The translations under genes and the position numbers were made by a program. This document shows, one piece after another, positions 16,327-51,760 of a stretch of DNA of 64,000 bases (its first letter is position 1; each line of letters begins with the position of its first letter). Source of the DNA: an uncultured Acidobacteriota bacterium (GTDB lineage Bacteria; Acidobacteriota; UBA6911); assembly GCA_963809485.1 (NCBI GenBank), contig CAWEJX010000006.1:288001-352000 (forward strand), in the 5' to 3' direction. Under the pieces are notes generated by a model. That model was not told the origin of the DNA and searched no databases. It was given only the letters and a program-made list of their open reading frames with translations.

Positions 16327-16693
16327 AAAGCCTCCTTTCACGGCAAAGCTCATGGGTTCAGGGTTCGAATTTCGATCGATGCAACGACCTTATTGCGCAG
16401 CCTTTGCTGCAGCAAGATACCATAGTGACGACACTGTTCTCAATCCACCCGGCTTTCAGCCCGTTGAAAACGGCAACGTATTTTCCGGTAGCCGTCTCAA
16501 GATGACGGCGATATAGGGTCTTCCCGCCACAACCCGGATTGTAGCCCCGGAATTTGCATGTCTGGAATCGGGTTAGACTCTCTGACTCAGTGGTCAGCGG
16601 TTTTTATTTATTTTCCTGCATAAAAGGGTGGGTTATAGTGGCGAGTGGTGCGCGCGCGATCATTATCGCATCCATTCCAGGAGGGAACGGAAC

Positions 16694-18682: not shown

Positions 18683-18708
18683 GGATCAACGATCCGGAGG
18701 TATTGATC

Positions 18709-19047
18709 ATGTCGGAAAAAGCTCTTTTGGTGACCAACCCCCCATCCGCCTGCAAGGCAATCCTATTCGATGCCGATCTTTGCACCGCTTGTCTGAATTG
18801 CGTCGAGGTGTGCCGGACGGACGTGTTGATCCCCAATCCGAAACAGGGCGAGCCGCCCATTGTGCTGTATCCCGATGAATGCTGGTTCTGCGGCAGCTGC
18901 GTGGCGCATTGCCCCTGTCCCGGCGCCATCCGGATGGAGCATCCTTTGAGCCAGCGCGCGACCTGGAAACGGAAAGAAACCGGAGAGCTGTTCCGTATCG
19001 GGATGAAGAATCCTCCTCCGCCGAATACCAAGCCACCGGTTTGCTAG
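18709..19047 (+). CDS. AprB-like 2x[4Fe-4S] ferredoxin
   Basis: CTACLNCVEVC, PDECWFCGSCVAHCP, followed by WKRK. Confidence 0.85.
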   Translation: MSEKALLVTNPPSACKAILFDADLCTACLNCVEVCRTDVLIPNPKQGEPPIVLYPDECWFCGSCVAHCPCPGAIRMEHPLSQRATWKRKETGELFRIGMKNPPPPNTKPPVC

Positions 19048-31180: not shown

Positions 31181-31212
31181 GTCACATCCTCCTGAAGCTG
31201 AAATAATGATTA

Positions 31213-31609
31213 CATTGGCAAACCCCCGGCTCTGCCGGGGGACTCAAAGAGTTTGACAGCTCCATATTTTGAAACGCTGAGAAACGCTGATAAAAGCGCT
31301 GACAAACGCCGATTTGTTCGGCGAGGGTCGGTGAGCAAAAGCCGATGAGGCGCTTCCGATGAAGTTTTCTGCGGCGGCACTGTGGCAAACGCCCGGTTTC
31401 TCATACCCTTCATCTCCCTGCCGCACGGCGCTTGCCACAGTGCCGCCACAGAAAACTGTCCAGCGCGGAGCGCTGGCCCCTGCGGGGATCGGAAGCGCCT
31501 CATCGGCTTTTGCCCGCGTAAGTCAGCGTTCAAAACCGGCGCAACTCCTCCAACCGCTTCGAGCGGTTCAAATCTTTCAAGCCTCCGGCTTTGCCGGAGG
31601 TGCCTGACT
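31213..31609 (+). mobile_element. non-autonomous IS200/IS605-type element (about 400 bp) with a long internal hairpin
   Basis: left-end hairpin GGCAAACCCCCGGCTCTGCCGGGGGACTC; right-end TCAAGCCTCCGGCTTTGCCGGAGGTGCCTGACT; no credible ORF. Confidence 0.75.
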
Positions 31610-31809
31610 GCCGCCCCAGTAATCGGATCGCTGCACCACGGCGGATAGGTCGCACACGTTGAGCCTTTAGATTTACTCGGCCCTATCCCCGGGGTTAGAA
31701 CCATTCATTACATGCATCCCTGCTTCCGGGGACTACATAGCGCCTTAATGACCCGTATTTTACTAGGATATTAAAAGAAGGATATAAAGAATTGTTGGGA
31801 TATATGGAA

Positions 31810-36164: not shown

Positions 36165-36911
36165 CTATGCTCCTTCCTTGGGCGCCGGTTTCGGGGCCAT
36201 TTTGGGAGCTGCTTTCGGCGGCGGAGCCAGATTGAGGTCATATCCGGCAACGTCCGTTTGAGAAGGAGCTTCCGCCACCAGCTTGAGCGCTTTGGCCACG
36301 CAGGTTTCCACGCAGGCCTGCTTGCCGCCGGGCCCGCCCTTCTGGTTCCAATAAGGAGCGTCGGCGCAAAGGTCGCATTTGGCGGATTTCTTTTTCGCCG
36401 AATTCCAGATCGTCCGGTGCGGCCTTTGAGGACAGGAGTTGATGCACCGCTTGCAGCCGATGCATTTTGTCTGGTCGATCCTCCTCACATTGCCGTTGGC
36501 AGCATCCACATGACAGGCGCCCGTGGGGCAATTCTGGACGCATAGCGGCGTAACGCACTGCCGGCATACCGACATGACGATGTCATAAGGGTACTTTGTG
36601 AATGACGGAGCATCGCGGATGATCTGTATCCTGGATAAGGAAGGATTTGCCACGCCTTCGTGAGTCAAAGAGCAGGCAAACATGCAGCTCTGGCAGCCCA
36701 GGCACAGCCTGCTGTCGTATACGATGTATCCGGTCGAAGCCGCGAAGGACGGCTTTGCATCCTGCGCTGCCGGTTGCGCCAATACTGCGGCCGTGGACGC
36801 GGAGGTGCTCGCAGCCAGGGCGCCGGCAGCAATAGCGGCGCCGCTTCCGGCCAGAAAATCCCGCCTCAAAACCTTTTTTCTTTTAATCTCGGCTTTCACG
36901 GATTCAGCCAT
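36165..36911 (-). CDS. Tat-signal 4x[4Fe-4S] subunit (DmsB/NrfC-like)
   Basis: LRRDFL; CLGCQSCMFAC, CRQC...CVQNCP, CIGCKRCINSCP, KCDLC...ACVETC. Confidence 0.92.
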   Translation of the reverse strand: MAESVKAEIKRKKVLRRDFLAGSGAAIAAGALAASTSASTAAVLAQPAAQDAKPSFAASTGYIVYDSRLCLGCQSCMFACSLTHEGVANPSLSRIQIIRDAPSFTKYPYDIVMSVCRQCVTPLCVQNCPTGACHVDAANGNVRRIDQTKCIGCKRCINSCPQRPHRTIWNSAKKKSAKCDLCADAPYWNQKGGPGGKQACVETCVAKALKLVAEAPSQTDVAGYDLNLAPPPKAAPKMAPKPAPKEGA

Positions 36912-37035
36912 AAATGGATCTCCTTCCCGTCAGCTTAAGGATAGTTTCAAGACGCATGCGAGGATCACAGGGACCTACAATAACAAAAATCATCTTTTCG
37001 AACCACACCATTGCAGATTCAGCCGGCAAAGAGCT

Positions 37036-38145
37036 CTAATCCGCCCTTCGACGTGATTTCTGGCCTGCTGCAACTGCGCGGCAAAAATGGTTTTTCGAGA
37101 ACCATGTATCAAGAGCGACGTACAGAATCCTCTCGTCCAGGGGGATGTCCGCGGAAAGTAAATCCAGGGAGTTCATGACAGCCGAATCATGGTTCAGGGT
37201 ATGGTTGGCGCTCCCGTCCGGCTTTCTCAGCGGCCATTCATCATAGAGAGTATTTGTGAACCCGGCAACCTGCGCCAAAGTCAAGGTGTCGAGAAGCTCT
37301 CTTTCGTCAAGTTTCTGCAATATAGGGTCGTAGCTTCTCAGATAGTGAACGAGCACCGAGGTTGAGTGTCTGCTATATTCATACCAGGAAATTCCGTCGA
37401 CTGCTTTGTCGAAAACCTTCATGGCGGATTTGCCCAAAAACCTGAATTCCTTGCTCGCTTCGCAGTCGACGCTGTTGCAGCAACCGGTATGGTTGAAGAA
37501 ACCCACATGGTCCCGTCCGTCGTGACCGTGAGAAGTCTCCGCCAGCGGGTGGGCCATGCAGCCGACTCTGCTATTCCCATCAATGAATCCCAATAACTGG
37601 CACTCCGGCAGTTCGCCTTGCCGGGGATGCTTCGGAACCGATCCTCCAAGAAACAAGGAAACGGGCCCCGCACTTGCCTCAGGCTTGTACCTGTACCCTT
37701 CGTGCCTTTGAGCTGTTTTCATGTACTGAGTCAAAGATTGTTTCGGATGCTCCGGGTCATACAGGGCTAGAAACAGTTTTCTTCTTTCTGAGAACCGCCT
37801 TTCCATCTCCTCTCTTCCGACATCCGGGAAAGAATCCTCGTATTTGGATGCCTCGAATTTTGGATCGTGCAGAGGATTGAAATTCCTGAACTTCATCACA
37901 ATGTTGCCCGGACCGAGATATCTGCCTGACTCCCGAGGATGAGGGGTAACGTTGTTTTTATTGATCGGATGGAGTTCCTTCTCTCCGGAATCCTCCAGGT
38001 GTGAATCTCCCCCTATGTGGGGAAGACAACATCGGACGCATGAGACGTTCCTGTATTGGCACAGGCTCGCTTCGTTACCTTCGCCCGAACGCATTATCTC
38101 CTGCTCTGCGAGGTTTCTGCTTTCCTGTTCGTCTGAGTAGGACAT
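37036..38145 (-). CDS. Cys-rich hypothetical protein (C-terminus possibly frameshifted)
   Basis: CQYRNVSCVRCC, CQLLGF...GCMAHP, CCNSVDC. Confidence 0.7.
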   Translation of the reverse strand: MSYSDEQESRNLAEQEIMRSGEGNEASLCQYRNVSCVRCCLPHIGGDSHLEDSGEKELHPINKNNVTPHPRESGRYLGPGNIVMKFRNFNPLHDPKFEASKYEDSFPDVGREEMERRFSERRKLFLALYDPEHPKQSLTQYMKTAQRHEGYRYKPEASAGPVSLFLGGSVPKHPRQGELPECQLLGFIDGNSRVGCMAHPLAETSHGHDGRDHVGFFNHTGCCNSVDCEASKEFRFLGKSAMKVFDKAVDGISWYEYSRHSTSVLVHYLRSYDPILQKLDERELLDTLTLAQVAGFTNTLYDEWPLRKPDGSANHTLNHDSAVMNSLDLLSADIPLDERILYVALDTWFSKNHFCRAVAAGQKSRRRAD

Positions 38146-38253
38146 GGGCAATAGGAAACCGGCTATGAAGATTTCCTCATGACATCACAATTTATGACCT
38201 GACCGGGAAATCTTAACATTTCTGGCTTTTCCAGGAGCCGACCGCTCAACCAA

Positions 38254-39657
38254 TCACCGATTTTGTTGACTGAAGCTATATAAGGCCTTGGCGGTGCGGA
38301 TATAGATGCTCTTGCCCCCGATTGCGGGCGTAGCCTGGCACTCTTCTCCCAGATCATTCACGGCCAGCACTTCCCACTGTGCATCCGCCTTCAAGACGCT
38401 GACTTTCCCGTCGTTGCTCACCAGGTAGACCTTCCCATCCGCGGCGACGGGTGATGCAAAATATGTTTCGATCGCTTTTTCAGACCGGCCGCTCTTCAAC
38501 ACGTCGCCGGTTGCGGGATTCAGGCTGGTTATAATGCCCCCGTCCTTTACCGTGTAAAGAACATCCCGGTATACCAGCGGCGAAGTGACTTCCGAATAGG
38601 CTTTCTTGAAACGCCAAAGCAGGTGATTCCGGGTCTGGTCCCCCAATCCCCCGGCTAGCACCGCGGCGAGGCCGTGCTCGGAAACACTTAGCTTCAAAAT
38701 CTCATCCCATTCCGTCTCGGTAAGATATCCGTCTCCATTCCTGTCTGCCCACCCGAAATGGTCGCCAAGATCGGGCACTGCCGCGGCTTCTTCAGCCGAA
38801 ATCTTTCCATCCTTGTTCGCATCCATTCCCACCAGTTTGGTCCAAGGATCAAACGTTGGTTTTTCCGCGCCATAGGAGGTTGCATAGATGATTCCGTTCG
38901 CCAGCGCGGGCGTCGAGATGGGGGATGTCCCTTGATTTCCCACCCACCATAGGTTTTCGCCCGAATCAATGTCGTAAGCGTCGATCCGGTAGGAGCCCGA
39001 CACAATCACTTGTGCCTTTTGGTCGGGAGTCGTCCATATTATTGGCGTGGAGAAAGCCTCAAGCTTTGCCTCTTTCCGCTCCTTGCGCCACCGTAAGCGT
39101 CCTGTGTCCTTGGCGAGCGCGATGATGAAGGACCCGCCAACCTGATCGCACACCAATACCAGCGTGCCGCCGTGTATGATCGGCGAGGAGGATACCCCAT
39201 AAAAACTGTTAAAGGGACCCAGCTTGAACCGCCATCGCTCTTTGCCTGCAGGGTCGTAGGAAACCAGGCCGAGATCAGGGAAAAACACATAGAAATTTCT
39301 GCCGTCCGTGGCTGGAGTCGGTGTCGACGTATCATTTCCCTTATAGATTTTCTGCGCGCGATCCCTCGATAACTCGCGCTGCCAAATGATTCGCCCTGTT
39401 TTGCGATCCAGGCAAACGGTGACCAGCCTCGGCCCCTCGCTGCCGGTAGCCACTATTTTGTCAGCCGTCAAAATGGGCGATGACCTTCCGAAAGGCAGTT
39501 CCTGGCGCCAGTCGAGGTTTTTAACCGGTCCGAACTCCACCGGCAATGAAGTGGCATTCGAAATCCCGCTCCCGTTGGGCCCGCGGAAACGGTTCCAGTC
39601 CTCGGTCCAGCCGGTTGCGGCAATCGTCAAAATGACAATCGGAAGCAGTTTTGTCAT
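38254..39657 (-). CDS. PQQ-binding-like beta-propeller protein with EF-hand insert
   Basis: DWNRFRGPNGSG, SSP/STP blades, DANKDGKIS, DRNGDGYLT. Confidence 0.9.
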   Translation of the reverse strand: MTKLLPIVILTIAATGWTEDWNRFRGPNGSGISNATSLPVEFGPVKNLDWRQELPFGRSSPILTADKIVATGSEGPRLVTVCLDRKTGRIIWQRELSRDRAQKIYKGNDTSTPTPATDGRNFYVFFPDLGLVSYDPAGKERWRFKLGPFNSFYGVSSSPIIHGGTLVLVCDQVGGSFIIALAKDTGRLRWRKERKEAKLEAFSTPIIWTTPDQKAQVIVSGSYRIDAYDIDSGENLWWVGNQGTSPISTPALANGIIYATSYGAEKPTFDPWTKLVGMDANKDGKISAEEAAAVPDLGDHFGWADRNGDGYLTETEWDEILKLSVSEHGLAAVLAGGLGDQTRNHLLWRFKKAYSEVTSPLVYRDVLYTVKDGGIITSLNPATGDVLKSGRSEKAIETYFASPVAADGKVYLVSNDGKVSVLKADAQWEVLAVNDLGEECQATPAIGGKSIYIRTAKALYSFSQQNR

Positions 39658-39694
39658 AGTCTTCCCCCTATTTGCCATGTGAGACTCTGATCAG

Positions 39695-40492
39695 TCACCG
39701 AATTTTGATATGGTCGCCTATGCGGCGCATGCGGGCCAGTTCATCTCCTGTCATGGGCGCTTGTTCAAGGATCGCCAGGTTCTGCCGCATCTGGTCCAAA
39801 GTCCTGGCTCCGGTCATGCAAACGTCCACTGCATGATGGGATAGAACAAATCGATAGCATTCGACGGCAGTAGGAACTCTTTCGCCGGGAGGCATCTTTT
39901 GGGGCCTCAGGAGCTTGCCCCAGGCTGTGCCTGTAAAATTAACAACTCCGGGCCTGTCATTCCCCGCCAGGTGTGGGAAAATTTCAGTCTCAGCACTCCG
40001 GTGCGCGGCGTTATATCGAAGGTGGAAGACATCGAATATTCCGGCGCCAAGGAGCCTGGGAAACAAAAGGCGACTATGGCTGGAAATGCCGAGGAAGCGC
40101 ACAAGGCCCTTTTCCTTCAGACGCATGGCTCCATCGATGATGCCCGCTGAGGGGGGTCTGTAAAATCCGCCCAGTATCAGCACATCCGCATAATCCAATC
40201 CCGCGGCCTTCAATCCCTTGACCAGGAAATGCTCGGTCAGAAATGACTGATGGGCATAGCTGAACATCGAAAGGACCAGGCGGTCCCGCTGGCCCCTGCC
40301 AGTGATATTGCGGACAGCATCGCGAAAATGGGGCGAGTAGCCTTTGACAAAGGTTCCCCATGTCATGTAATTGCAGCCGTGTTCAAAGGCTTCTTCTATA
40401 GCCTTCGCCGGCGCCCAATAGCCGGAGGCTATGCCCAGTCGGCATACGCTGAGTCCGGTTCTTCCCAATAAGACTTTTTCACAGAATTTCAT
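39695..40492 (-). CDS. aldo/keto reductase
   Basis: LGRTGLSVCRLG, GLVRFLGISSH, RYNAAH. Confidence 0.88.
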   Translation of the reverse strand: MKFCEKVLLGRTGLSVCRLGIASGYWAPAKAIEEAFEHGCNYMTWGTFVKGYSPHFRDAVRNITGRGQRDRLVLSMFSYAHQSFLTEHFLVKGLKAAGLDYADVLILGGFYRPPSAGIIDGAMRLKEKGLVRFLGISSHSRLLFPRLLGAGIFDVFHLRYNAAHRSAETEIFPHLAGNDRPGVVNFTGTAWGKLLRPQKMPPGERVPTAVECYRFVLSHHAVDVCMTGARTLDQMRQNLAILEQAPMTGDELARMRRIGDHIKIR

Positions 40493-40893
40493 GCCGTTAC
40501 CAGGATCATCCATTGCACGCCGAAGCGATCCACGACCATGCCGAAAAGAGGGGAATAGAAAGTTTGAGCCAGAGGCATCCGGATTTTTCCGCCTTCGGCG
40601 AGGGCTTGAAACATGCGTGAAGCCTGGGCTTCGCTTGCCAGTGCCAGTGTGAGGGAAAAGCCCTGGAAATTCGGTAGCCCGCTGCAGAGGCCATCTGAAA
40701 CCATGACGGTTGTTTCCCCGATGCGGAGATTGGCATGCATGATTTTATCCTCCGTTCCCGGGCGGCTTGAGTCCCGGTCGGGATTGTCTTTGTAACGCAG
40801 GAGCGCAGTGACCTCGGCGCCCAGCGCGTCACGGTAGAATTCAATAGCTTCGTCGCAGCGGCCCTCGAAGAACAGGTAGGGTTCAATTTTCAT
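40489..40893 (-). CDS. VOC/PhnB family protein
   Basis: PYLFFEGRCDEAIEFY, IMHA, DRFGVQW. Confidence 0.92.
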   Translation of the reverse strand: MKIEPYLFFEGRCDEAIEFYRDALGAEVTALLRYKDNPDRDSSRPGTEDKIMHANLRIGETTVMVSDGLCSGLPNFQGFSLTLALASEAQASRMFQALAEGGKIRMPLAQTFYSPLFGMVVDRFGVQWMILVTA

Positions 40894-41160
40894 GGATTTT
40901 TCCCCCCAATCTTATCTTGAATATCACACGGCATGGAAGAGGTGTCAATTTCGGGCAGGCAGAACTCGCAGGAATTGCCGGTCAGTTCCTGGCGACTAAG
41001 GCGCGCAGCGGCGAATATCCTTGAGAGAATCACCATCGAAAAATCCTCCGCGGTGCCCGGAACCTGGTTTTGTTAAGGCAATGCCGGGTATCTTTCGAGT
41101 AGGCTATTCTTCAGACCATGGCCGTTATCTCTGGAGAGCGTCGCCCTCAACTGGGGCCGA

Positions 41161-41568
41161 TCAGCAGCGGCAAATCGAAAGGCCGCAGTTGTTGTATCGA
41201 GCCCGGACTGCCGGGATTTTCAGGATTCGTTCCGTCTCTGCATCGTCGGCCATGGAATGCCCCAGCATATCCACCCAGAAATCCACCCAATTGTGGCCGC
41301 TTGAGGCGTCGGTTGAGGTCAGTGCCGCCTCCAGTTCCGAAAGATCGCACCCCACTTCACATACTGAAAAGCAACCCGATGCAATCTTGATGCGTGCATT
41401 CTCCAGCAAACGGTCTGCTTCGCCGGGCAGCGTGACATGCCGCAAATGCAGGGCATCGCGCCAGCCGGCCAGTACAGCCCAACGCAATCCAAATTGCTTC
41501 AGCACTGCTTCTTCAAGTACGCCCGCATCTTCGCCGCTTTTCTGATTTTCCATTCCCATGGCGCCCAT
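41161..41568 (-). CDS. Cys-rich hypothetical protein downstream of the response regulator
   Basis: AGAAAGG RBS; CFSVCEVGC and C-terminal CGLSICRC. Confidence 0.7.
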   Translation of the reverse strand: MGAMGMENQKSGEDAGVLEEAVLKQFGLRWAVLAGWRDALHLRHVTLPGEADRLLENARIKIASGCFSVCEVGCDLSELEAALTSTDASSGHNWVDFWVDMLGHSMADDAETERILKIPAVRARYNNCGLSICRC

Positions 41569-41631
41569 TCCTTTCTGAGCAATACCTATATACCGCTCTT
41601 CCTGCCGACATTCGCCTCGTGCCGGCGAATC

Positions 41632-42300
41632 TCACGGCCAGGATTCAAGATTGATGAGACCGCGCTTCAAGGCATACTTCACCAATGCCGTGACATCGTG
41701 CAGATCGAGCTTGCGCATGATATTGGTGCGGTGTGTGTCAACGGTTTTTCTGCCGAGTCCCAGGAGATCGGCGATCTGCTGGTTGGTGTGGCCTTCCGCG
41801 ATGAGCTTCAGGACTTCGGACTCACGGGCGGTGAGTGCCGAACCGGAGTCCCCATGTTCGCTGGACCGGGTTCTGCGAACGTAATCCTTGATGAGTTTCG
41901 CTGCAACCGCAGGGTGTAGAGCCGATCCCCCTTTGTCCACTTCCCGAATGGCGCGCAGGAGGTCATCGCTCGCCGCACGCTTGAGAACATACCCGGATGC
42001 TCCCGCTTTGAGAATTTGACGAATATATTCCTCATCGTCGTACATGCTTAAAATGAGCACTTTGATATCCGGGTGCCTGTCGTGCAGTTGCTGGGCAGCC
42101 TGCATACCATTCATGCCGGGCATGATCAGATCCATCACGATGATGTCCGGCGAGATTTTTGCGGCCAGCTCGATCGCCTGTGCGCCATCGCAAGCCTCTC
42201 CTACAACTTCCATATCCGGCTCTGCTGAAAGCAGGGCGCGGATTCCTTCCCGAAAAATGGTGTGGTCGTCAACGAGCAGCACCTTGATCATAGGGTTCAT
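41632..42300 (-). CDS. NarL/LuxR-family response regulator
   Basis: VDDH, MDLIMP, GYVLK, LTARESEVL HTH. Confidence 0.95.
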   Translation of the reverse strand: MNPMIKVLLVDDHTIFREGIRALLSAEPDMEVVGEACDGAQAIELAAKISPDIIVMDLIMPGMNGMQAAQQLHDRHPDIKVLILSMYDDEEYIRQILKAGASGYVLKRAASDDLLRAIREVDKGGSALHPAVAAKLIKDYVRRTRSSEHGDSGSALTARESEVLKLIAEGHTNQQIADLLGLGRKTVDTHRTNIMRKLDLHDVTALVKYALKRGLINLESWP

Positions 42301-43370
42301 GCCTCGCATGGCATGGAATTGTGTCCCGCGATAGGAACCACGATGTTGAGCTGCGTTCCCATGCCTGTTTCCGATTTTATAGTTAGAGTTCCCTTTGCCA
42401 GTTTGACCCGTTCCCTGATGGTATGAAGCCCCAGGCCTCCGCCTTTTTTGTCGCTCAGGATCACCGAATCCGGATTGAAGCCCTGTCCATTGTCTGCAAT
42501 CGCCAGCACGGCATACTCCGGCCTAATTTCGAGTTTTATGGAAACACGGGTTGCATGGGCATGACGGAGCACATTCGCCAGCGCTTCCTGGGCGATGCGA
42601 TAAAGAGCAGTTTCGATGTTCAGCGGCGCCCGAAGCGCCGCATCCTCGAAATCGGCATCAACAACGAGTCCCGTTCCTGCCAGGTGGGTCTTGATGTACC
42701 AGCGCAAGGTCGGCACCAGACCCAGATCATCCAGCATGACCGGCCTGAGGTCGTAGACACAAATCTTGATTTGCTCCAGGCTGTGCTCGATGAGCTGCTT
42801 GACTCCGGCAAGTTTTTTACGGGCATCCACGGGATTGCTGCCAATGGCGGTATCGGCCAGCTTCAGGTTGACGAGAGCGGTGGCCAATGTCTGGCTGGTC
42901 TGGTCATGAAGCTCCCGGCCTATGCGCTGCCGCTCCGCTTCAATGGAGTTTAAAAGCTGCGTCGTATGCCACAGGGATTCATCCTCCAGGCGGTCAATCG
43001 CATCACGGACAGAACGGATGACGCCGCCGATTGCGGGATCGGAATCCGAGCGGGCAACGATAGATGGGGATATCCCCTGATGAATCGATTCCACGGCTTT
43101 TCGGAATTCCGTGAGCGGACGGAAATAGTCGCGCATTATCAGGTAACCCGAAGTTATGGACACAGCAGAACCTGCAGCCCCCAGCACGACAATAAGGACA
43201 ATAGCCGGGAGGTCGTGAAGATGCCGGGAAAGCCAGACTCCGCCTACAGTTACTGAAACGATTATGAGTGCATTGGAAACCATCAGTTTGGCAGCCAAAC
43301 CAAGGTGTGTTGAAATACCGACCTCCAATCTAAGGCTTATACCGGATAAAGAATGAAAAAATCTTATCAC
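42297..43370 (-). CDS. membrane sensor histidine kinase (HisKA_3)
   Basis: ERQRIGRELHD, LRP..LDDLG, QEALANV, DNGQGF, GLGL. Confidence 0.93.
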   Translation of the reverse strand: MIRFFHSLSGISLRLEVGISTHLGLAAKLMVSNALIIVSVTVGGVWLSRHLHDLPAIVLIVVLGAAGSAVSITSGYLIMRDYFRPLTEFRKAVESIHQGISPSIVARSDSDPAIGGVIRSVRDAIDRLEDESLWHTTQLLNSIEAERQRIGRELHDQTSQTLATALVNLKLADTAIGSNPVDARKKLAGVKQLIEHSLEQIKICVYDLRPVMLDDLGLVPTLRWYIKTHLAGTGLVVDADFEDAALRAPLNIETALYRIAQEALANVLRHAHATRVSIKLEIRPEYAVLAIADNGQGFNPDSVILSDKKGGGLGLHTIRERVKLAKGTLTIKSETGMGTQLNIVVPIAGHNSMPCEA

Positions 43371-43468
43371 AGGATGTTATGAAGATGCAATCTGTTGCGA
43401 TTCCAATAATTCATGGGATTATCGATCTGCTTCACCCGTACCTGCGATGGATGATTTATACGATATTA

Positions 43469-43499
43469 ACCCTACTAATAGAATAGGGTAAAAACCTTA
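43469..43499. promoter_or_regulatory. candidate response-regulator binding sites in the divergent promoter
   Basis: ACCCTA...TAGGGT inverted pair and TAGGGTA-AA-AACCTTA in an AT-rich intergenic region. Confidence 0.4.
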
Positions 43500-43592
43500 T
43501 ATTATTTATAAGTATTATTTGACAATGGTGGATTCATCATGATACACAAACTGAAAGAAAAAATTTCTCAACACCCGCTCACGGAGGTCCTC

Positions 43593-45403
43593 ATGCGAAC
43601 AGGCGTTTATTTCTGCCAGGTGGAGCAAATGGATGGCCTGAATCTGGATGCGGTTGCCAAGTATGCATCCAATCTGCCTGAAGTGGAAACCGTCGAGACT
43701 CTTGGCGTTCAACCTCGACTGGATCCCCAGTTGCTGGCGGAATCTTTGAAGCGCAGCCGGATCGAACGTGTGGTTATTGCCGGCGATCAGCCCGGTTATT
43801 TCAAACCGATTTTTACAAGATCCATGGCGCTCGCGGGACAGGACCCCACCGAAGTGCGCCTGGCTTCCTTCCGTTCCCGAGGGGCTACCTTTCAATATTC
43901 CCTGGAGCGAGCCAAGGCCATCGTTGCCTGTGCCACTATGGCCGTGCCGTATGCTCTCGCTGCCATTCCGGCGGAAACACCGGTCCATCCTTCAACCCTG
44001 ATCATCGGAGGAGGTGTGGCAGGGATACAGGCAGCCCTGGAGATCGCCGATGCCGGCAGGCAGGTCTACCTTGTGGAAAGAAGCGGCACCATCGGCGGCC
44101 ACATGGCCATGTTCGACAAAACCTTTCCGACCCTCGACTGCGCGGCCTGCATTCTGACTCCCAAAATGGTCGCCGTTGGCCAGCATGACATGATCAATCT
44201 CATCACCAACTGCGAAGTGACGGAAGTGTCGGGAGCCCCCGGCGCGTACCGCGCGAAAATTTTGAAAAGAGCGCGCCGCGTGGACGCCAAAGCATGTGTG
44301 GCCTGCGGCATTTGTTCCGATGTCTGCCCCGTAAGCGTTCCGAGCGATTTCGATGCCAACATAACAACCCGCAAGGCCATTTATGTGCCATTCCCCCAGG
44401 CTGTGCCGAATGCCTACCTGGTGGACGCCTTGAGCTGCACTTATGTCCAAAGCAAAAAGTGCGGCGCCTGCGCCAAAAAATGCCCGAAGGAGTGCATCAA
44501 CCTGGAGGAACAGGACGAGACCATGGAAATTGACGTCGGCAATATCATCGTGGCCACCGGCTACGACGTGCTCGACGCCGGCAAGGTCGAGCGCTACGGC
44601 TATGGGAAAAATCCCAATGTGCTCACGGCGCTCGAATTCGAGCGGCTGACGAATGCTTCGGGTCCCACGGGCGGGAAAATTGTTATGAAAACCAGGCAGT
44701 TCAATAAACGCCTGAAAAAGGACGAGTGGACATTTGACGTCTCAGGGCCTCCGCCCCAAAGCGTGGCGATCATTCACTGCGTCGGGTCGAGGGATGCGAG
44801 CTACAACCCCTATTGCTCCCGGGTCTGCTGCATGTATTCCCTGAAATTCGCCCATCTCGTGAAAGAGAAACTGCATGACGCCGCCTGCTATGAGTTCTAT
44901 ATCGATATGCGGGCGTTCGGCAAAGGGTATGAGGAATTTGCCGAACGGATCAAGCAGGAGGGAGCGTTTGTCGTCCGCGGGCGTTCGGCAACAGTGACGG
45001 AAACAGACGGCCGCCTCGTCGTCAAAGGCGAGGATATTGTGAACGACCGGCTGCTCGAGTTCCCGGTGGATATGGTCCTGCTTGCTGTGGGCCTGATTCC
45101 CGCGCGGGGAACCGAGGACCTCAGCAAACTGCTGGGTGTCACGCGGGGACCGGACGGCTGGTTCTCCGAGCTTGACTACAATGGAAATCCCACGGATACG
45201 GAGCGCGGAGGCATTTACGTAGCCGGGATGTGCCAGGCGCCGAAAGACATTCCCGATACGGTGGCTCAGGCTTCGGCGGTCGCCGCCGGCGTTTTGCGAA
45301 GCATATCGAGCGGCAAGGGAATGGGCATTGGGATACTCTCTCGCTAAGCGAAATCGAGGCGCGTGCCAAAAACCTGGCCCGGGTCTCCGACAAGCCTGCA
45401 TAG
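43593..45403 (+). CDS. hdrA: heterodisulfide reductase subunit A-like flavoprotein 1 (possible frameshift near 45330)
   Basis: IGGGVAG, DKTFPTLDCAAC, inserted ferredoxin, [22 protein letters not shown]. Confidence 0.92.
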
Positions 45404-45477
45404 CGTGCCTGTGTCCCGGATCGATGCTTTGATTGCGCGAATCTCAAGCAAACTGAAAGCGGCTCGAGGAGGTTACG

Positions 45478-46642
45478 ATGGCGATACGGGTGAATCCCAA
45501 GCTGATTGACGAGCTGGAGCGTTTCGGATCCGAGGATGTGCAGAACTGCTATCACTGCGGCAACTGCTCGGCTGTCTGTCCGCACGCGGACGACATGTTT
45601 GTCTTCCCGCGCAAGCCGATGCGTTTTCTGCAAATGGGTCTCGAGAAGAAACTGGAAAGGTCTCTGACGCCATGGCTCTGTTACTACTGCGGCCAATGCT
45701 CGGTGCAGTGCCCGAGAGAAGCCGAGCCCGGCGAGACCATGATGAGCATGCGCCGCTGGCTGATTTCCCGGTATGATTTTACGGGGATTGCCAGGCTCTT
45801 TTACATGTCCTGGAAAGGGGAACTGGCCTTCGTCGTCATCATCGCCTTGCTCACGGGCGCGGGACTGTCCGCCTATGGCTTGTCCAAGGGCGACATCGGC
45901 ATCTACGACGGCCCGGGAGCCTTCTTGCCCAGTTCCTTGATTCATATCGATCGACCTGGTTTTGATGGCCGTGCTGACCGTCTTGCTGGCCGTCAATATC
46001 ATACGGATGTGGCGATTCATAATGCAGGATGCCGCCAAGGCGCCCATTTCGTTTGGGCTGTATCTGAAGAAGCTCTATCTGCTGCCGGTGCATTTTTTCT
46101 CTCAGAAACGCTATGCCCAGTGCGACCCCGAAAACAAAAACAGCGTCCACTTCCCCTGGATCACTCACCTGGGAATCGTGCTCGGCTATTTCACGATGCT
46201 TGTGCTGATCATACTTTTTCTGGACCGTCTGCAGGCGGGTCCGGAAATCCAATGGCCGGTTCACGTGTTTGGCTACCTTGCAAGCATCGGATTGCTCATC
46301 GGGACCGTTTACGTGCTTTACGGCCGGCTGACAAAGACCCAGGTCCAGCACCGGCGCTCCCATAGCACGGATTGGATGTTCCTGTGGCTGCTCTTCTACA
46401 TGGTCGTCACCGGCATTATCCAGCATCTGCTGCATCGCGCCGGTTTCCCGGAGGCAGCCAATATTGCTTATGTCGCACATCTGATGGGCGTATTCCCCTG
46501 GCTGTTGAGGATGCCTTTCAGCAAATGGGCTCACATGATATACCGCCCGATCGCCATGTATATTGCGGGAATCATTCGAGAATCGGCAGCACTGGAGAAA
46601 GCGCCCCAACGTTCCACCCAGCATTTGCAGCCAGCCGCGTGA
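45478..46642 (+). CDS. QmoC-like protein: HdrC-type 2x[4Fe-4S] fused to a NarI-like membrane domain (frameshift near 45948)
   Basis: CYHCGNCSAVCP, PWLCYYCGQCSVQCP, multi-TM with His residues (ITHL, VAHL, FSKWAH). Confidence 0.85.
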
Positions 46643-46654
46643 CGAGAGGTGATC

Positions 46655-48376
46655 ATGCCAAATTCCAGGATAGGGGTTTATATCTGCAACTGTGGTACGA
46701 ACATCGCCAAACTGGTCGATTGCGAAGCCGTTGCCAGGTTTGCTTCCGAGCAGCCGACCGTCGCAATCACAAAAACCTATAAGTACATGTGCTCGAATCC
46801 GGGCCAGGAAATGATCGCGCAGGATATCCATGAGCATGCTCTTGACAGTGTGGTGGTCGCCGCCTGCAGCCCGCGTATGCATGAACGGACCTTTCGCAGG
46901 GTGCTGCAAACGGCCGGGCTGAATCCCTATATGTGCGATATGGCCAATATCCGCGAGCACTGCAGCTGGGTTCACCAGGATGCGGCTGCGGCCACGGAAA
47001 AGGCCAAGGCGCTGACCAAGGCGTCGATCCTGCGTGTGGAACGGCATGAGGCTTTGGACCGGTTCTCCGTGGATATGTGTCCCTCCACGCTCGTAATCGG
47101 CGGCGGTGTCGCGGGTATGACGGCTGCCCTGGAATTAGCGGAGGCGGGCTACCCGGTCTATCTTGTGGAGAAAAAAGACCATCTAGGGGGAAACCTTACC
47201 CGGACGGACTTGACGGCTCCGTATCTCGACTCGGCGCGGGACCTGGTTACCGAGCGTATCACGCGTGTGCAGGAGAACCGCAATATTGAAGTCCTGCTCA
47301 ATTCTCAGGTTAAAACCCTGGAGGGATTTGTCGGGAATTTTACCGCCGGCATCGAGCGCGGCTCCCCACAGGCGGACGGCAAGGACCAGATTCAGGTCGG
47401 GAATGTGGTGGTGAGCACGGGCTACAAGGAATTTGATGCCGCCCGTATCAGCCATTATGGATATGGGAAGCTGCCGAATGTGATCACGTCCTTTGACTTT
47501 GAAAAAATGCTCCGCGCCGGCCGCATCCAGACCAAAGAAGGACGGATCCCTCAGTATGTGGCGATCCTTCACTGTGTCGGGAGCCGCAGCCAGGAGTTTC
47601 ACGGCTACTGCTCGCGCGTCTGCTGCATGACGGCGCTCAAGTATGTCCACGAAATCAAGTCGGCCATACCCAAGTGCTATGTTTCGGACCTTTATATCGA
47701 CATGCATGCCTTCGGCAAAGGGCACGAGGATTTCTATCGCAAGACCTCGGAAGTAAAAACCGTATTCCTGATGTACGGAAAGAACGAACACCCGGTCATC
47801 CGCAAGGCGGATCCCAAAGACGATTGTGAAATGATCATCGAGGTGAACGAGAAGCTTTCGGGCGAGAGGATCGAGATTCCGGCGGATATGGTCATTCTCA
47901 TGGTCGGCATGGAATCGCGAGAGGATTCTGCGCAGGTCGCCCGGCTGGTAAACATCAGCCAGGACAAGGACGGATGGTTCATAGAAAGCCATCCCAAGCT
48001 CGATCCCGTGGCCACAACCACCGACGGCATATACATCGCCGGCACTTGCGTCGCTCCCAAAGATATTCCGGATACCGTCGCCCAGGCGCGCGCGGCGGCC
48101 GCCCGCATCCTGGGCAAGATCGCCAGAGGGAAGATCGAAGTGGATGCCGTATTTGCCGAAGTGGACGAAACCCGCTGCTCGGGTTGCCGCATGTGCAACG
48201 AATTATGTCCGTACAGCGCCATTGAGTTTGACGAGGAAAAGAGACGCAGCAGGGTCATCAGCGCCGTGTGCAAAGCGTGCGGCTGCTGCGTCGCATCCTG
48301 TCCTTCCGGCGCCATTAAAGGACGTCATTTCACCGACCAACAGATCTTCGCGCAAATTGAAGGGGTGCTGCTATGA
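46655..48376 (+). CDS. hdrA: heterodisulfide reductase subunit A-like flavoprotein 2
   Basis: [37 protein letters not shown]-terminal 2x[4Fe-4S]. Confidence 0.93.
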
Positions 48377-48807
48377 GCTTCGAGCCCAAGATTGTCGGAT
48401 TCCTATGCAACTGGTGTTCCTACGCAGGAGCGGATCTTGCGGGAACAAGCCGCATTCAGTATCGACCGAATATACGCATTATCCGCGTCATGTGCTCAGC
48501 GCGCGTGGACCCCACCTTTGTCGTCAAAGCGCTGACTCAGGGCGCCGACGGCGTCCTCGTCTGCGGATGCCATCCCGGGGATTGCCACTATTCGGAGGGG
48601 AACCACAAAGCCATGCGGCGGTTCCCCCTGCTTCAGAAGCTGCTTGCCGACTTGGGAGTTGAAGATGAGCGCGTGCGCCTGGAATGGGTCAGCGCCAGTG
48701 AAGGGCAACATTTCGCGGATATTGTCAACGACATGACGGATCGCATCAAAGTCCTCGGCCCGAGCCGAATCCCCGGCGTGTTGCAGGCAGACAGGATAGA
48801 GAGGTGA
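48373..48807 (+). CDS. mvhD: MvhD [2Fe-2S] subunit
   Basis: [39 protein letters not shown]. Confidence 0.95.
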
Positions 48808-48810
48808 ACC

Positions 48811-49777
48811 ATGGCGGAGAAAAAGCTACAGATCGCACTGTATTGGGCAGCTGCCTGCGGCGGCTGTGACGTCGCCGTCCTGGATACCAACGAGTTCATT
48901 CTCGACGTCGCCCAATTGGCCGATATTCGCCTGTGGCCGATCGCCGTCGATGGGAAATACAAAGATGTGGAAGCGATGCAGGACGGCGAATTGGATGTGA
49001 GTCATTTTTAACGGCGCCGTGCGCAACAGCGAGAACGAGCATCTGGCCAAACTCCTGCGCCGGAAAAGCAAAATTCTCGTCGCCTTCGGCTCCTGCGCGC
49101 ACATGGGGGGTATACCGGGATTGGCGAATCTGGCCAGAAAGGACGAAATCCTCACCCGGGCGTACCTGAATAATCCATCCATTGAACCTGGAAACCAGAA
49201 GACGCCGCGCCCTGAAACTCAGGTCAACGGATTCACATTGCATATCCCCCAATTCTACAAGCGCGTTTACAGGCTGAGCGATATTGTGGAGGTCGACTAT
49301 TTTGTTCCGGGTTGCCCGCCCGCGCCGCACCAGGTGAAAGCGGTCCTTCTTGCTATCGCCAAAGGCGACCTGCCGCCCAGGGGGTCCGTGGTTGGGGCCT
49401 CGGAGCTGACGGTCTGCGATGACTGCAAGCGCAAAAAAACAGAAAAGAAAATCAAACGATTCTACCGGCCTTATGAAATTATCCAGGATCCGGAGAAGTG
49501 CCTTCTCGAACAGGGAATTCTCTGCATGGGTTCGGCCACGCGCTCCGGATGCGGAGTTCGCTGCCCGGATACCGGACAAGGCTGCCGCGGATGTTACGGC
49601 CCCACTGCGAATGTCGTGGATCAAGGGGTGAAATTTGCCAGCGCGCTGGCCGCCATTATCGACAGCAAGGATCCGACAGAGATACAGGAAATTATCAGCG
49701 GACTGCCGGATTTTGTCAGCTTTGCTTACCGTTTTGGCATGCCGGCCTCTTTGCTGCAAAGGAGTTTGCGGACATGA
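48811..49777 (+). CDS. mvhG: [NiFe]-hydrogenase small subunit MvhG (frameshift near 49002)
   Basis: CGGCD, FGSCAHMGG, PGCPP, TVCDDC, CLLEQG..CMG, CRGCYGP. Confidence 0.9.
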
Positions 49778-51236
49778 CGAGAACCATCAGTATCGACCCT
49801 ATTACGAGGCTTGAAGGTCACGGCAAAATTGAGATATTTCTCGATGACGAAGGGGGCGTAAAGGACTGCTTTTTCCAGATCCCGGAACTCCGCGGCTTCG
49901 AGCGCTTCGTGGTGGGCAGGCCCATCGAGGAGCTGCCCCGCATTGTGACGCGAATATGCGGCGTCTGCCCGGCAAGCCATCATATGGCGAGCGCCAAGGC
50001 CGTCGACGGCTGCTTTGGCAACGAGGTGGCTCCCGTAGCGCACAAGCTGCGGGATATGTATTACCACGCTCATTACATCCACAGCCACATTGCCCACTTT
50101 TATGCTTTGGCGGCCCCCGATTTTGTTTGCGGCCCGGACGCGGATCCGGCCACGCGAAACATTTTGGGTGTTGTGGCAAAGGTCGGCCTCGAAATCGGCG
50201 GGTCCGTCATCAAAGCTCGTGCCATGGCCCAGAGGATTCAGCAGATTTTAGGGGGCCGTTTCACGCACCTCGTCTGGTGCCTGCCGGGTGGAGTCTGCAA
50301 GGGTCTGAACAAGGACGAACTGGAGACCATCAAGCCCATGGTCGGAGAGCTTTCGGCTTTTGCCGATTTTTCCATCAAGCTTTTCCACGATGTGGTATTG
50401 GCGAATCCCGCCTACGTGGACATCATTCTCAACGGGCCCTATACTCTTGACGTCCACAATATGGGCCTTGTAGATGAGAACAATGCTCCTAACTTCTATC
50501 AACGGCCAGGTCCGCGTCGTTGATTTCACCGGGCGGGAGATCTGCAAATATAAACCGGAAGATTACGCACAATATGTCGCGGAACATGTCGAGGAGTGGT
50601 CCTATCTGAAGTTCCCGTATCTGAGGAAGCGCGGCTGGAAAGGCTTCGTCGAAGGCCTCGATTCCGGCATCTACTGCGCAACTCCGCTCGCACGGTTGAA
50701 TGTCGCCGACCGCATGGCGACACCCAGAGCGCAGGAGGCCTTTGAAGAAATGTTCAAAACCCTCGGCGGCAAACCCTGCAAGGCGCTCATGGCCAACCAC
50801 TGGGCGCGGCTGGTGGAAATGCTGCAGAACGTCGAGATGCTGGAGCGCTATTGCGCCGATCCCGAGATCACCAGCGACAAGTTCCGCGTCGTTCCGCAAG
50901 GGCATTACGGGAGAAGGCGTCGGGATTGTGGAAGCCATGCGCGGCACTCTGACCCACCACTACACGTGCGACAAAAATGGCATCTGCAAAAGCGCCAATC
51001 TCATAGTGGGAACGACTAATAACAATGCTCCTATACAGATGGTTACCAAAAAGGTGGCCCAGGCTTTGATTAAGCCGGGGAAGGAACCGACTCAGGGGAT
51101 CCTCAACATGGTGGAAATGGCATTCCGCTGCTTCGATCCCTGCTATAGCTGTGCGACTCATTCTTTGCCCGGGCAGATGCCGCTTGATATTTCCATATAT
51201 GAAAACGACAAGCTGCGCTGGCATTTCAAGCGTTAG
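49774..51236 (+). CDS. mvhA: [NiFe]-hydrogenase large subunit MvhA (frameshifts near 50498 and 50898)
   Basis: IDPITRLEGHG, RICGVC (L1), EAMRGTLTHHY, RCFDPCYSCATH (L2). Confidence 0.92.
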
Positions 51237-51238
51237 CC

Positions 51239-51760
51239 ATGGAGACCACTTCCCAAACAAGGAATATTCCCATCAAAACCTTACTCCTCGGGATGGGGAA
51301 TCCCTATCTCTCGGATGACGCTGTGGGAATCCGTCTGGTCTCCGATTTCAGCCGGAGGCACGGCAGCATCCCGAATCTTGATGTCCTGGAAGAGTGTTCG
51401 ATAGGGGGATTGAATTTGCTCGATCTCCTGGAGAATTTCGAGCGCCTCATTGTTGTGGACTCCATCAAAACGCAAGGAGGGATTCCGGGCAACTGGTATC
51501 GTTTCACCGCCGGGGAGCTTCGCGAGACAATGAATCTCAGCAATGTCCACGACGCCAATTTCGCGACCGCTCTGGAACTGGGACGCCGGATGGGAATGAA
51601 GATTCCCGCTGAGAGAGAGACTCACATCTTCGCGGTCGAAATTCTTGAAAATCTGGTTTTCAGCGATCGTCTGACGGAGGATCTCGAAAAAACCTACGCG
51701 GTCTATTCCGAAGAAATTTTCCGGGAACTCTGCTCGCTGATCGGCATCAGGCCGCTTTGA
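51239..51760 (+). CDS. hydrogenase maturation protease
   Basis: LGMGNPYLSDDAVG, IVVDS, NVHD. Confidence 0.92.
   Translation: METTSQTRNIPIKTLLLGMGNPYLSDDAVGIRLVSDFSRRHGSIPNLDVLEECSIGGLNLLDLLENFERLIVVDSIKTQGGIPGNWYRFTAGELRETMNLSNVHDANFATALELGRRMGMKIPAERETHIFAVEILENLVFSDRLTEDLEKTYAVYSEEIFRELCSLIGIRPL

Follow-up and report, generated by a model that had tools for sequence, protein, structure and literature searches.

The closest described relative of the operon considered here is the 'Mvh-Qmo-Hdr' gene cluster of two Archaeoglobi, Candidatus Methanoglobus nevadensis and Candidatus M. hypatiae, called 'fascinating' and 'unique' by those who reported it (bioRxiv 10.1101/2022.12.01.518715; PMC10945360). 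According to the parts of the published account that deal with the cluster, it encodes MvhAGD, two HdrA proteins, and an HdrC-QmoC fusion without HdrB, is expressed in M. hypatiae at 995-2431 reads per kilobase per million mapped reads (RPKM), and was hypothesized, with no biochemistry, to bifurcate electrons from H2 to menaquinone and ferredoxin (PMC10945360). Here we analyze a stretch of 64,000 nucleotides (the window) from an uncultured Acidobacteriota bacterium of the UBA6911 lineage (positions 288,001 to 352,000 of contig CAWEJX010000006.1, assembly GCA_963809485.1; positions below count from the first letter of the window), which carries an operon of two hdrA paralogs, a qmoC-like gene, and Mvh hydrogenase genes. 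On balance we favor the reading that this operon is a bacterial copy of 'Mvh-Qmo-Hdr', that it encodes a membrane-anchored cytoplasmic [NiFe]-hydrogenase predicted from homology to bifurcate electrons from H2 to menaquinone and ferredoxin, and that the frame breaks in its deposited sequence are assembly errors. An earlier annotation of the window from its letters alone (the original prediction) had presented the operon as a new hybrid arrangement, a claim that must be withdrawn because the same cluster and hypothesis were published for Ca. Methanoglobus; the window's copy is a bacterial member of a known but uncharacterized module, and the bifurcation hypothesis is already in print for archaea.

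Two better studied systems supply the parts. In the HdrA of methanogens, as set out in the available text of Chadwick et al. 2022 (PMC9012536), one electron pair exits through the cluster of the thioredoxin-reductase domain to HdrBC, while the other travels through an N-terminal cluster to an inserted ferredoxin domain and from there to ferredoxin, one ligand of the N-terminal cluster being Cys197 of the partner subunit; in the tandem HdrAs of anaerobic methanotrophic (ANME) archaea, complementarity of Cys197 and the N-terminal cluster between copies, of the same kind as described below, is read there as a sign of obligate heterodimers (PMC9012536). For the QmoABC complex of sulfate reducers, a partner role for a hydrogenase was already put forward by Ramos et al. 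2012, and confurcation was proposed for QmoABC with adenosine 5'-phosphosulfate (APS) reductase, as far as the available text of that paper goes (PMC3333476).

Subunits of the operon and their conservation

Both the gene content and the coordinates given in the original prediction (two HdrA paralogs, an HdrC-membrane fusion, MvhD, MvhG, MvhA, and a protease) were borne out by Pfam and NCBIfam searches: seven genes, hdrA', qmoC-like, hdrA'', mvhD, mvhG, mvhA, and a maturation protease gene, are tightly packed on the + strand at 43593-51760, with ATGA stop/start overlaps between hdrA'' and mvhD and between mvhG and mvhA. The orthologous operon in another Acidobacteriota genome (G027) is unbroken and shares 70-75% amino acid identity.

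The two HdrA proteins are complementary. Both have the FAD fold and the Cys motif of the thioredoxin-reductase-domain cluster, and both score best in NCBIfam against methanogen-type HdrA models. HdrA' (43593..45403, + strand, end approximate) is a Pfam FAD/Pyr_redox fold with an inserted 2x[4Fe-4S] Fer4 pair that aligns to residues 5-565 of 5odc_A (E 2.9e-132); the inserted ferredoxin domain and the Cys197 equivalent (DCAAC) are retained, whereas the C-terminal ferredoxin domain is missing and the N-terminal domain, stripped of its cluster cysteines, is cysteine-poor. HdrA'' (46655..48376, + strand, with an alternative GTG start at 46649) consists of Cys-rich N-terminal, FAD, and C-terminal 2x[4Fe-4S] ferredoxin domains and aligns to residues 9-244 and 326-653 of 8rvu_a (E 3.3e-146); the N-terminal cysteines are retained, but the inserted ferredoxin domain is missing and neither cysteine of the Cys197 site survives (LDSARD). 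Combined, the pair holds one copy of every HdrA domain, with the input domain on HdrA'' and the ferredoxin-output domain on HdrA', and by sequence alignment it shares a single N-terminal cluster composed of the HdrA'' cysteines and one HdrA' cysteine. Such complementary losses of domains and ligands imply, as far as alignment can, that HdrA' and HdrA'' form an obligate heterodimer.

The qmoC-like gene (45478..46642, + strand) joins an HdrC-like 2x[4Fe-4S] domain to a six-helix NarI-like cytochrome b domain. Its N-terminal Fer4 dicluster matches HdrC residues 26-118 of 7bkb_C (E 4.4e-12), its C-terminal part reaches 24.3 bits against Pfam Nitrate_red_gam of the NarI family (cut-off 22.9), and the two pieces score 95.9 and 81 bits against the NCBIfam qmoC equivalog, under its cut-off of 300. 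The predicted structure of the intact G027 ortholog (mean predicted local distance difference test score, pLDDT, 74.5; 80-96 in the membrane part) has six long helices. Among 48,161 chains its top fold matches are the membrane cytochrome b domain of Mycobacterium smegmatis EtfD (9ojn_A; Z 10.8, 230 residues aligned) and Escherichia coli NarI (1q16_C; Z 9.8, 181 aligned, 18% identity), Z values that lie under the level where helical-bundle matches become specific and that the arrangement of helices alone can give. Absence of heme b ligands from the membrane domain, which the original prediction had named as a result that would speak against it, is not what we observed: eight histidines are invariant in 15 QmoC homologs from different phyla, lie near both membrane faces as judged from the predicted helices, and are all kept in the window copy. 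These eight would suffice for two bis-histidine hemes, and we infer that the domain binds heme b.

The remaining genes encode the hydrogenase and its protease. MvhD, the [2Fe-2S] linker subunit (48373..48807, + strand), matches all of Pfam FlpD (positions 1-123 of 123, E 3.3e-56) as well as NCBIfam VhuD (2.2e-40); the small subunit gene mvhG (48811..49777, + strand) matches VhuG (6e-55); and VhuA is the best or near-best NCBIfam match for all three pieces of mvhA (49774..51236, + strand), the gene for the Mvh/Vhu type [NiFe] large subunit. VhuA, VhuG, and VhuD are thus best or near-best throughout, each under its equivalog cut-off. Both nickel-iron Cys pairs can be read in the MvhA translation, the N-terminal CGVC and the C-terminal DPCYSC, together with a C-terminal extension for the protease, and the intact G027 MvhA ortholog matches, over its own full length, the large subunits of solved F420-non-reducing hydrogenases (9sw2_F, 1e-108; 5odc_F, 2.5e-108). 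By these family matches the hydrogenase is of the Mvh/Vhu type. The last gene (51239..51760, + strand) encodes a maturation endopeptidase of the HycI/HyaD type (Pfam HycI, 4.1e-8; NCBIfam hydrog_prot, 69.2 bits, cut-off 47.45).

Relatives of the QmoC-like subunit are numerous: the G027 protein has 3140 at E <= 1e-10 among 6022 database candidates, the best 120 being 61-95% identical to it. We compared the best 80 of at least 583 places that encode a QmoC relative (at least 596 pattern matches) in species-representative genomes. In these 80 loci the gene immediately upstream of qmoC is hdrA' in 76 (and 2 more reach a contig edge), the one immediately downstream is hdrA'' in 72 (a contig edge in 5 others), and mvhA is adjacent in 67; synteny that recurs in this way argues that the arrangement is not due to chance. 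The majority order is hdrA'-qmoC-hdrA''-mvhD-G-A(-protease), and the order in Bacteroidota loci is mvhD-G-A-hdrA'-qmoC-hdrA''. Judged by record titles, the loci span about ten phyla: Acidobacteriota (Thermoanaerobaculia, Aminicenantes, Holophagae, and Vicinamibacterales), Actinomycetota (Thermoleophilia and Gaiellales), Myxococcota, Planctomycetota (Pirellulales), Bacteroidota, Sumerlaeota, Krumholzibacteriota, Latescibacterota, Eisenbacteria, Chrysiogenales, and others. Two loci from metagenome-assembled genomes of Thermoanaerobaculia (L037 and L042) have hdrA'-qmoC-hdrA''-mvhD and no mvhG or mvhA match in about 7 kb downstream, and may represent a module variant that takes in electrons through a different enzyme.

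Proposed electron flow and its alternatives

If the subunits work as their homologs do, H2 would be oxidized in the cytoplasm by MvhAG, and electrons would pass by way of MvhD and the ferredoxin domain at the C terminus of HdrA'' to an FAD of the HdrA'/HdrA'' heterodimer, where the electron pair would be bifurcated. The high-potential branch would lead through the thioredoxin-reductase-domain cluster and the pair of [4Fe-4S] clusters in the HdrC-like region to the two hemes b and menaquinone, which would thereby take the role that the heterodisulfide has in methanogens; the low-potential branch would lead through the single N-terminal cluster, with ligands from the HdrA'' cysteines and the Cys197 equivalent of HdrA', to the ferredoxin domain inserted in HdrA' and finally to ferredoxin. 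The potential of H2 is about -414 mV. That of menaquinol is given as -75 mV in the available text of PMC3333476, and the drop from H2 to menaquinone can pay for the reduction of ferredoxin. The original prediction had H2 reducing quinone and ferredoxin, or the reverse; the parts would fit the forward reaction, whereas the evolution of H2 from quinol is strongly uphill, so that the reverse direction is unlikely.

Every part needed to take electrons from H2 to quinone is present, and the potential drop is big enough to run that reaction unaided, so the complex could instead be a simple non-bifurcating H2:menaquinone oxidoreductase that sends all electrons to quinone, the second flavoprotein and the ferredoxin domain serving as wiring or regulation. 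We regard this as improbable, since both FAD domains, the inserted ferredoxin domain, and the shared N-terminal cluster are conserved across the 80 loci, these elements make up the ferredoxin branch in HdrA, and a plain quinone reductase needs less apparatus.

A second alternative starts from the Qmo-like subunit types and from the proposal by Ramos et al. 2012 of a hydrogenase as co-donor to Qmo (PMC3333476, in the text available): electrons of H2, delivered by Mvh, and of menaquinol, delivered by QmoC, would be joined at the flavin to reduce a cytoplasmic acceptor of intermediate potential. Confurcation of this kind appears very unlikely, because no acceptor gene is conserved next to the operon across the 80 loci, a dsrA search of this genome (95.67% complete) had 0 matches, and an AprA/SdhA-like gene 25 kb upstream of the operon is far under the aprA cut-off (69.6 vs 641.75 bits) and does not travel with it. 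No canonical qmoC over cut-off was found in the genome, and no AprA-like gene lies next to the operon in the 80 loci, given the queries used; the original prediction had likewise placed the operon outside a sat-apr-qmo context.

The acceptor could also be a disulfide, as in canonical Mvh-Hdr complexes, if an HdrB or HdrBC encoded elsewhere joined the complex and the QmoC-like subunit were only an anchor; an hdrB elsewhere that completes a canonical complex is also a result that the original prediction had named as speaking against it. We searched for the CCG domain of HdrB with a hidden Markov model (HMM) made from the 17 CCG stretches of this same genome, covering all six reading frames of the 64-kb window as well as the 80 loci. 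The window contains no match, which agrees with the original prediction that the operon has no HdrB (CCG) gene, and the operon is likewise free of CCG in 80 of the 80 loci; CCG genes occur in the flanks of 8, each by a separate second hdrA-mvh cluster. A conserved HdrB-free operon argues against HdrB in trans, as does the fusion to cytochrome b of the HdrC-like domain, the would-be dock of HdrB. The genome does contain 19 CCG-domain matches elsewhere, at about ten places, including, upstream of another mvhDGA cluster (contig C1), one gene that is hdrB-like, but this gene belongs to a NuoEF/HdrA-type cluster of its own, and we consider participation of an HdrB from elsewhere in the genome scarcely credible.

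That second mvhD-mvhG-mvhA cluster (L148; G000:C1:325000-344000) has upstream genes for NuoE/NuoF-like proteins, a 2Fe-2S/4Fe-4S-HdrA (NuoG/HdrA) fusion, and an [FeFe]-hydrogenase-like protein, and its mvhDGA genes are also preceded by genes for a DRTGG protein and a HATPase protein, a short HdrA-like open reading frame (ORF), and the hdrB-like CCG gene. It is a different module, possibly one that links Hdr/Mvh to NAD(P)H.

A membrane-anchored, bifurcating hydrogenase remains the reading we prefer, and besides the CCG matches elsewhere in the genome and the limited specificity of the EtfD and NarI fold matches, several points weigh against it. Bifurcation is read from likeness to HdrA alone, and a plain H2:quinone oxidoreductase would need the same parts; heme binding, similarly, is read from conserved histidines alone. 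A Foldseek search of PDB with the QmoC model returned nothing at E <= 0.001, with NarI only at rank 43. The window QmoC deviates at 15 of the 131 columns that are invariant in the 15 homologs, as compared with 0-6 in leave-one-out controls, and none of these changes hits the eight histidines. Prenyltransferases of the menA type matched only under cut-off in the genome. Finally, no biochemical or genetic evidence for the module in any organism was found in the literature searched.

Frame breaks, loss and genomic setting

The deposited operon contains five 1-nt frame-breaking indels. The original prediction had alluded to frameshifts, and these are present in the deposited sequence: a 1-nt insertion at ~45947 in the qmoC-like gene, a 1-nt insertion in a T5 run at ~49001 in mvhG, and two 1-nt insertions at ~50502 and ~50896 in mvhA. 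The fifth, not noted there, is a 1-nt deletion at ~45322 in hdrA', as a result of which the deposited frame stops at 45347 with its last ~25 residues altered; the tail of the protein beyond ~45322 can be read in another frame and resembles that of the G027 protein. Five overlapping same-strand ORF pairs in the window, examined with Pfam, yielded no further clear frameshift.

Contigs of other strains, with ~95% identity to the window, were taken from three public DNA runs on soil and wetland metagenomes and aligned to the operon. Wherever they cover the positions, these contigs have one letter fewer at 45947, 49001, 50502/50503, and 50896, and an additional A after 45322; an RNA-library contig (4 of 223 positions differing, ~98% identical) is also without the insertion at 50896. 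Parts of the operon that the RNA run leaves uncovered were given no weight. Apart from the indels the operon has no in-frame stops or other damage, and 25 of 31 hdrA' substitutions relative to the related contigs are at third codon positions (among the 40 of 505 differences listed). Substitutions concentrated at third positions, together with the lack of in-frame stops, indicate that the genes were under purifying selection until very recently.

Breaks of the same kind occur elsewhere in this genome. In a comparison with the nearest genome, G006, that covered 143 of its long ORFs with an ortholog-level match (first 20 kb of the 20 largest G006 contigs; 64,697 residues), 133 map to one frame, while 9 are distributed over two to four; their 14 switches are clustered, three of them in one 1153-codon gene for example; one further multi-frame case proved to be a paralog and not a frameshift. 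Clusters of switches in well-conserved genes are found at G000:C8:18606-23221, G000:C20:643658-648165, G000:C20:936259-945094, and G000:C20:717928-718972 (5, 3, and 3 switches relative to G006, and hypD, which is present but split over two frames), and such clusters in this 21-contig assembly call for caution with any of its gene calls. Two other possible indicators were set aside: long-ORF coverage (frames of at least 200 residues), at 0.815 in the genome, 0.706 in the window, and 0.917 in the related loci with their bias toward long genes, is not decisive as a measure of assembly quality; and a directional bias of indels as a sign of artifact was dropped, since the 14 genome-wide switches are about equal in both directions.

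We conclude that the five frame breaks are most probably assembly errors, and that the organism's own operon is therefore probably intact. The original prediction had held that real frameshifts would count against it; the breaks are indeed in the deposited sequence, but they are without counterpart in the ~95% identical contigs and resemble the clustered breaks elsewhere in the genome.

The alternative, that the operon of this strain is a recently inactivated pseudogene cluster and the indels are real mutations, is unlikely in our estimation but draws on several observations that also count against assembly error. Breaks are about eight times denser in the operon (5 in 8.2 kb) than in the other genes compared (14 in ~194 kb); coding DNA in the ~10 kb flanks, at 91-93% nucleotide identity to G006, contains hardly any single-base indels; rpoB reads as a single open frame (1454 codons); and only one of the five indels is in a homopolymer. 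G006 itself retains just a 172-bp remnant of the protease gene by a repeat, so that real decay here is possible, and the operon has an ortholog in 0 of 24 genomes of the same genus (four have only relatives of 28-35% identity), which makes it dispensable in the lineage. Against decay, the operon has no damage besides the indels, its substitutions are mostly at third positions, every indel is missing from the 95-98% identical contigs of four other runs, and clustered breaks of this kind in conserved genes elsewhere, including hypD, point to assembly quality.

The G006 remnant (L127, G006:C64, 8242-8413) corresponds to window 51325-51493 and is 93% identical to it; the equivalent of window 38241-51324 is missing from the G006 contig, and the sequence beyond the remnant matches nothing in the window. 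Comparison of the two sequences thus points to loss of the operon in this sister species. A repeat of ~400 bp, at 31209-31609 in the window and overlapping an ORF at 31210-31704 (- strand), has at least eight more copies of 96-97% identity on other contigs and copies in G006, one of them at the junction of the operon loss, and is possibly a small mobile element. Matches at E <= 1e-60 are present in 28 of 401 sampled Acidobacteriota genomes, roughly 11 of which reach an identity of at least 59%, and the window proteins share 70-86% identity with proteins from several different phyla. This patchy distribution, the loss in G006, and the high identity across phyla argue that the module is accessory and horizontally distributed.

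Divergent from the operon lie genes for a NarL/LuxR-type response regulator (41632..42309, - strand; Pfam Response_reg 4.8e-30, GerE 2.5e-19) and a HisKA_3 histidine kinase (42297..43370, - strand; Pfam HisKA_3 7.1e-14, HATPase_c 6.4e-15), the latter with two N-terminal hydrophobic helices and, by hydropathy, an outer loop of only a few residues. Of the 80 loci, 19 have a homolog of the regulator (~60% identity) upstream of the operon and 17 a homolog of the kinase there, the loci that carry them being, among the matches listed, mainly from Thermoleophilia or Actinomycetota plus one Holophagae genome. The divergent two-component system is probably the regulator of the operon. A scan for promoters and terminators gave counts at the level of shuffled sequence (7 vs 5.3 and 12 vs 10.2) and was discarded.

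Further redox proteins are encoded in the same window. The flavoprotein gene 25 kb upstream of the operon (16628-19047, + strand) specifies 684 residues of the SdhA/FrdA/AprA superfamily, fits no named family (best score 198.5 bits, cut-off 587), and overlaps a following ORF with a 2x[4Fe-4S] domain. At 36165-38151 (- strand) an NrfC/DsrO/HybA-like four-cluster FeS protein (best match nrfC, 102 bits, under cut-off) is encoded beside a 371-residue ORF without family matches; these genes may form another membrane redox module near the operon.

Significance and comparison with known systems

More broadly, and with somewhat less than even confidence, we suggest from the sequence comparisons that the operon may represent a widespread bacterial class of membrane-bound electron-bifurcating hydrogenase with menaquinone as high-potential acceptor and ferredoxin reduced from H2, encoded at the at least 583 places noted above, in roughly ten phyla of bacteria from soil, wetland, and sediment, and spread by horizontal transfer together with a kinase-regulator pair in a subset. 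If so, many organisms scored as 'group 3c, Hdr-linked' or 'qmoABC-positive' would carry an unrecognized respiratory H2-uptake enzyme; anaerobic and facultative bacteria of soil and wetland would charge the quinone pool and make low-potential ferredoxin from H2 with no heterodisulfide needed, a distinct mode of energy conservation from H2; and 'group 3c hydrogenase' and 'qmoABC' annotations in metagenome surveys would have to be read differently. We wish to stress that the window itself adds the link to a regulator, the loss of the operon in a sister genome, and a caveat about assembly, and little beyond these. In practical terms, the organism probably carries an unbroken operon, the assembly has clustered gene-breaking indels, and the operon is accessory and horizontally distributed in its genus; the module is widespread and merits a biochemical test. 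The literature we searched, mostly non-subscription and without supplements, yielded no description of the bacterial operon, and a Desulfobacterium autotrophicum genome paper and a paper on the Fibrobacteres-Chlorobi-Bacteroidetes (FCB) phyla mention Qmo and Mvh separately and not a combined cluster.

How the operon relates to its described relatives can be set out subunit by subunit. In structure the QmoC membrane domain is matched best by EtfD (9ojn_A) and NarI (1q16_C), and NarI is also its Pfam family; identity is 12-18%, however, and the domain has six helices as opposed to the five of NarI. With the MvhADG-HdrABC complex of hydrogenotrophic methanogens (5odc, 8rvu, 9sw2), which combines a group 3c [NiFe]-hydrogenase with heterodisulfide reductase, the operon shares a hydrogenase, MvhD, and HdrA that are close homologs (E 1e-108 to 1e-146), and the HdrC-like dicluster is kept. 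The methanogen complex differs in having HdrB and an HdrC that is not fused to a membrane cytochrome b, in having a single four-domain HdrA as a symmetric homodimer where the operon has two complementary paralogs, and in its acceptor, which is CoM-S-S-CoB (the disulfide of coenzymes M and B) and here would likely be quinone on the high-potential side.

The HdrA pair has a parallel in the tandem or fused HdrAs of ANME archaea, in which one copy keeps the N-terminal cluster without Cys197 and the other keeps Cys197 only, implying an asymmetric heterodimer; as described in the available text, the Cys197-bearing ANME copy has no N-terminal domain at all (PMC9012536), while in HdrA' a cysteine-poor one persists. 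Their partners and context are also different, and QmoC is not mentioned in the available text of PMC9012536.

QmoABC of sulfate reducers likewise comprises two HdrA-like flavoproteins and a QmoC in which an HdrC-like part is fused to an HdrE/NarI-like diheme domain, with an MvhD-like element associated with one flavoprotein, as far as the available description goes (PMC3333476). The QmoC-like protein of the operon, with its predicted hemes, resembles QmoC in domain architecture but scores under the qmoC equivalog cut-off. The gene order, however, is A-B-C in qmoABC and A'-C-A''-D in the operon, plus the attached hydrogenase; QmoB carries a fused MvhD-like domain, whereas HdrA'' ends in a ferredoxin domain and MvhD is a separate 144-residue protein; and QmoABC is linked to AprAB/Sat/Dsr, whereas the operon has no aprBA, sat, or dsr context.

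Closest of all is the Ca. Methanoglobus cluster, which has the same parts list and the same proposed reaction, so that the operon falls within the compositional definition of 'Mvh-Qmo-Hdr' as the papers describe it. The difference is one of host and surroundings: the archaeal cluster is reported, in the text available, from hot-spring methanogens, whereas the operon here belongs to a soil or wetland Acidobacteriota genome and the bacterial module to about ten phyla, and in a subset of the bacterial loci a two-component system travels with the operon.

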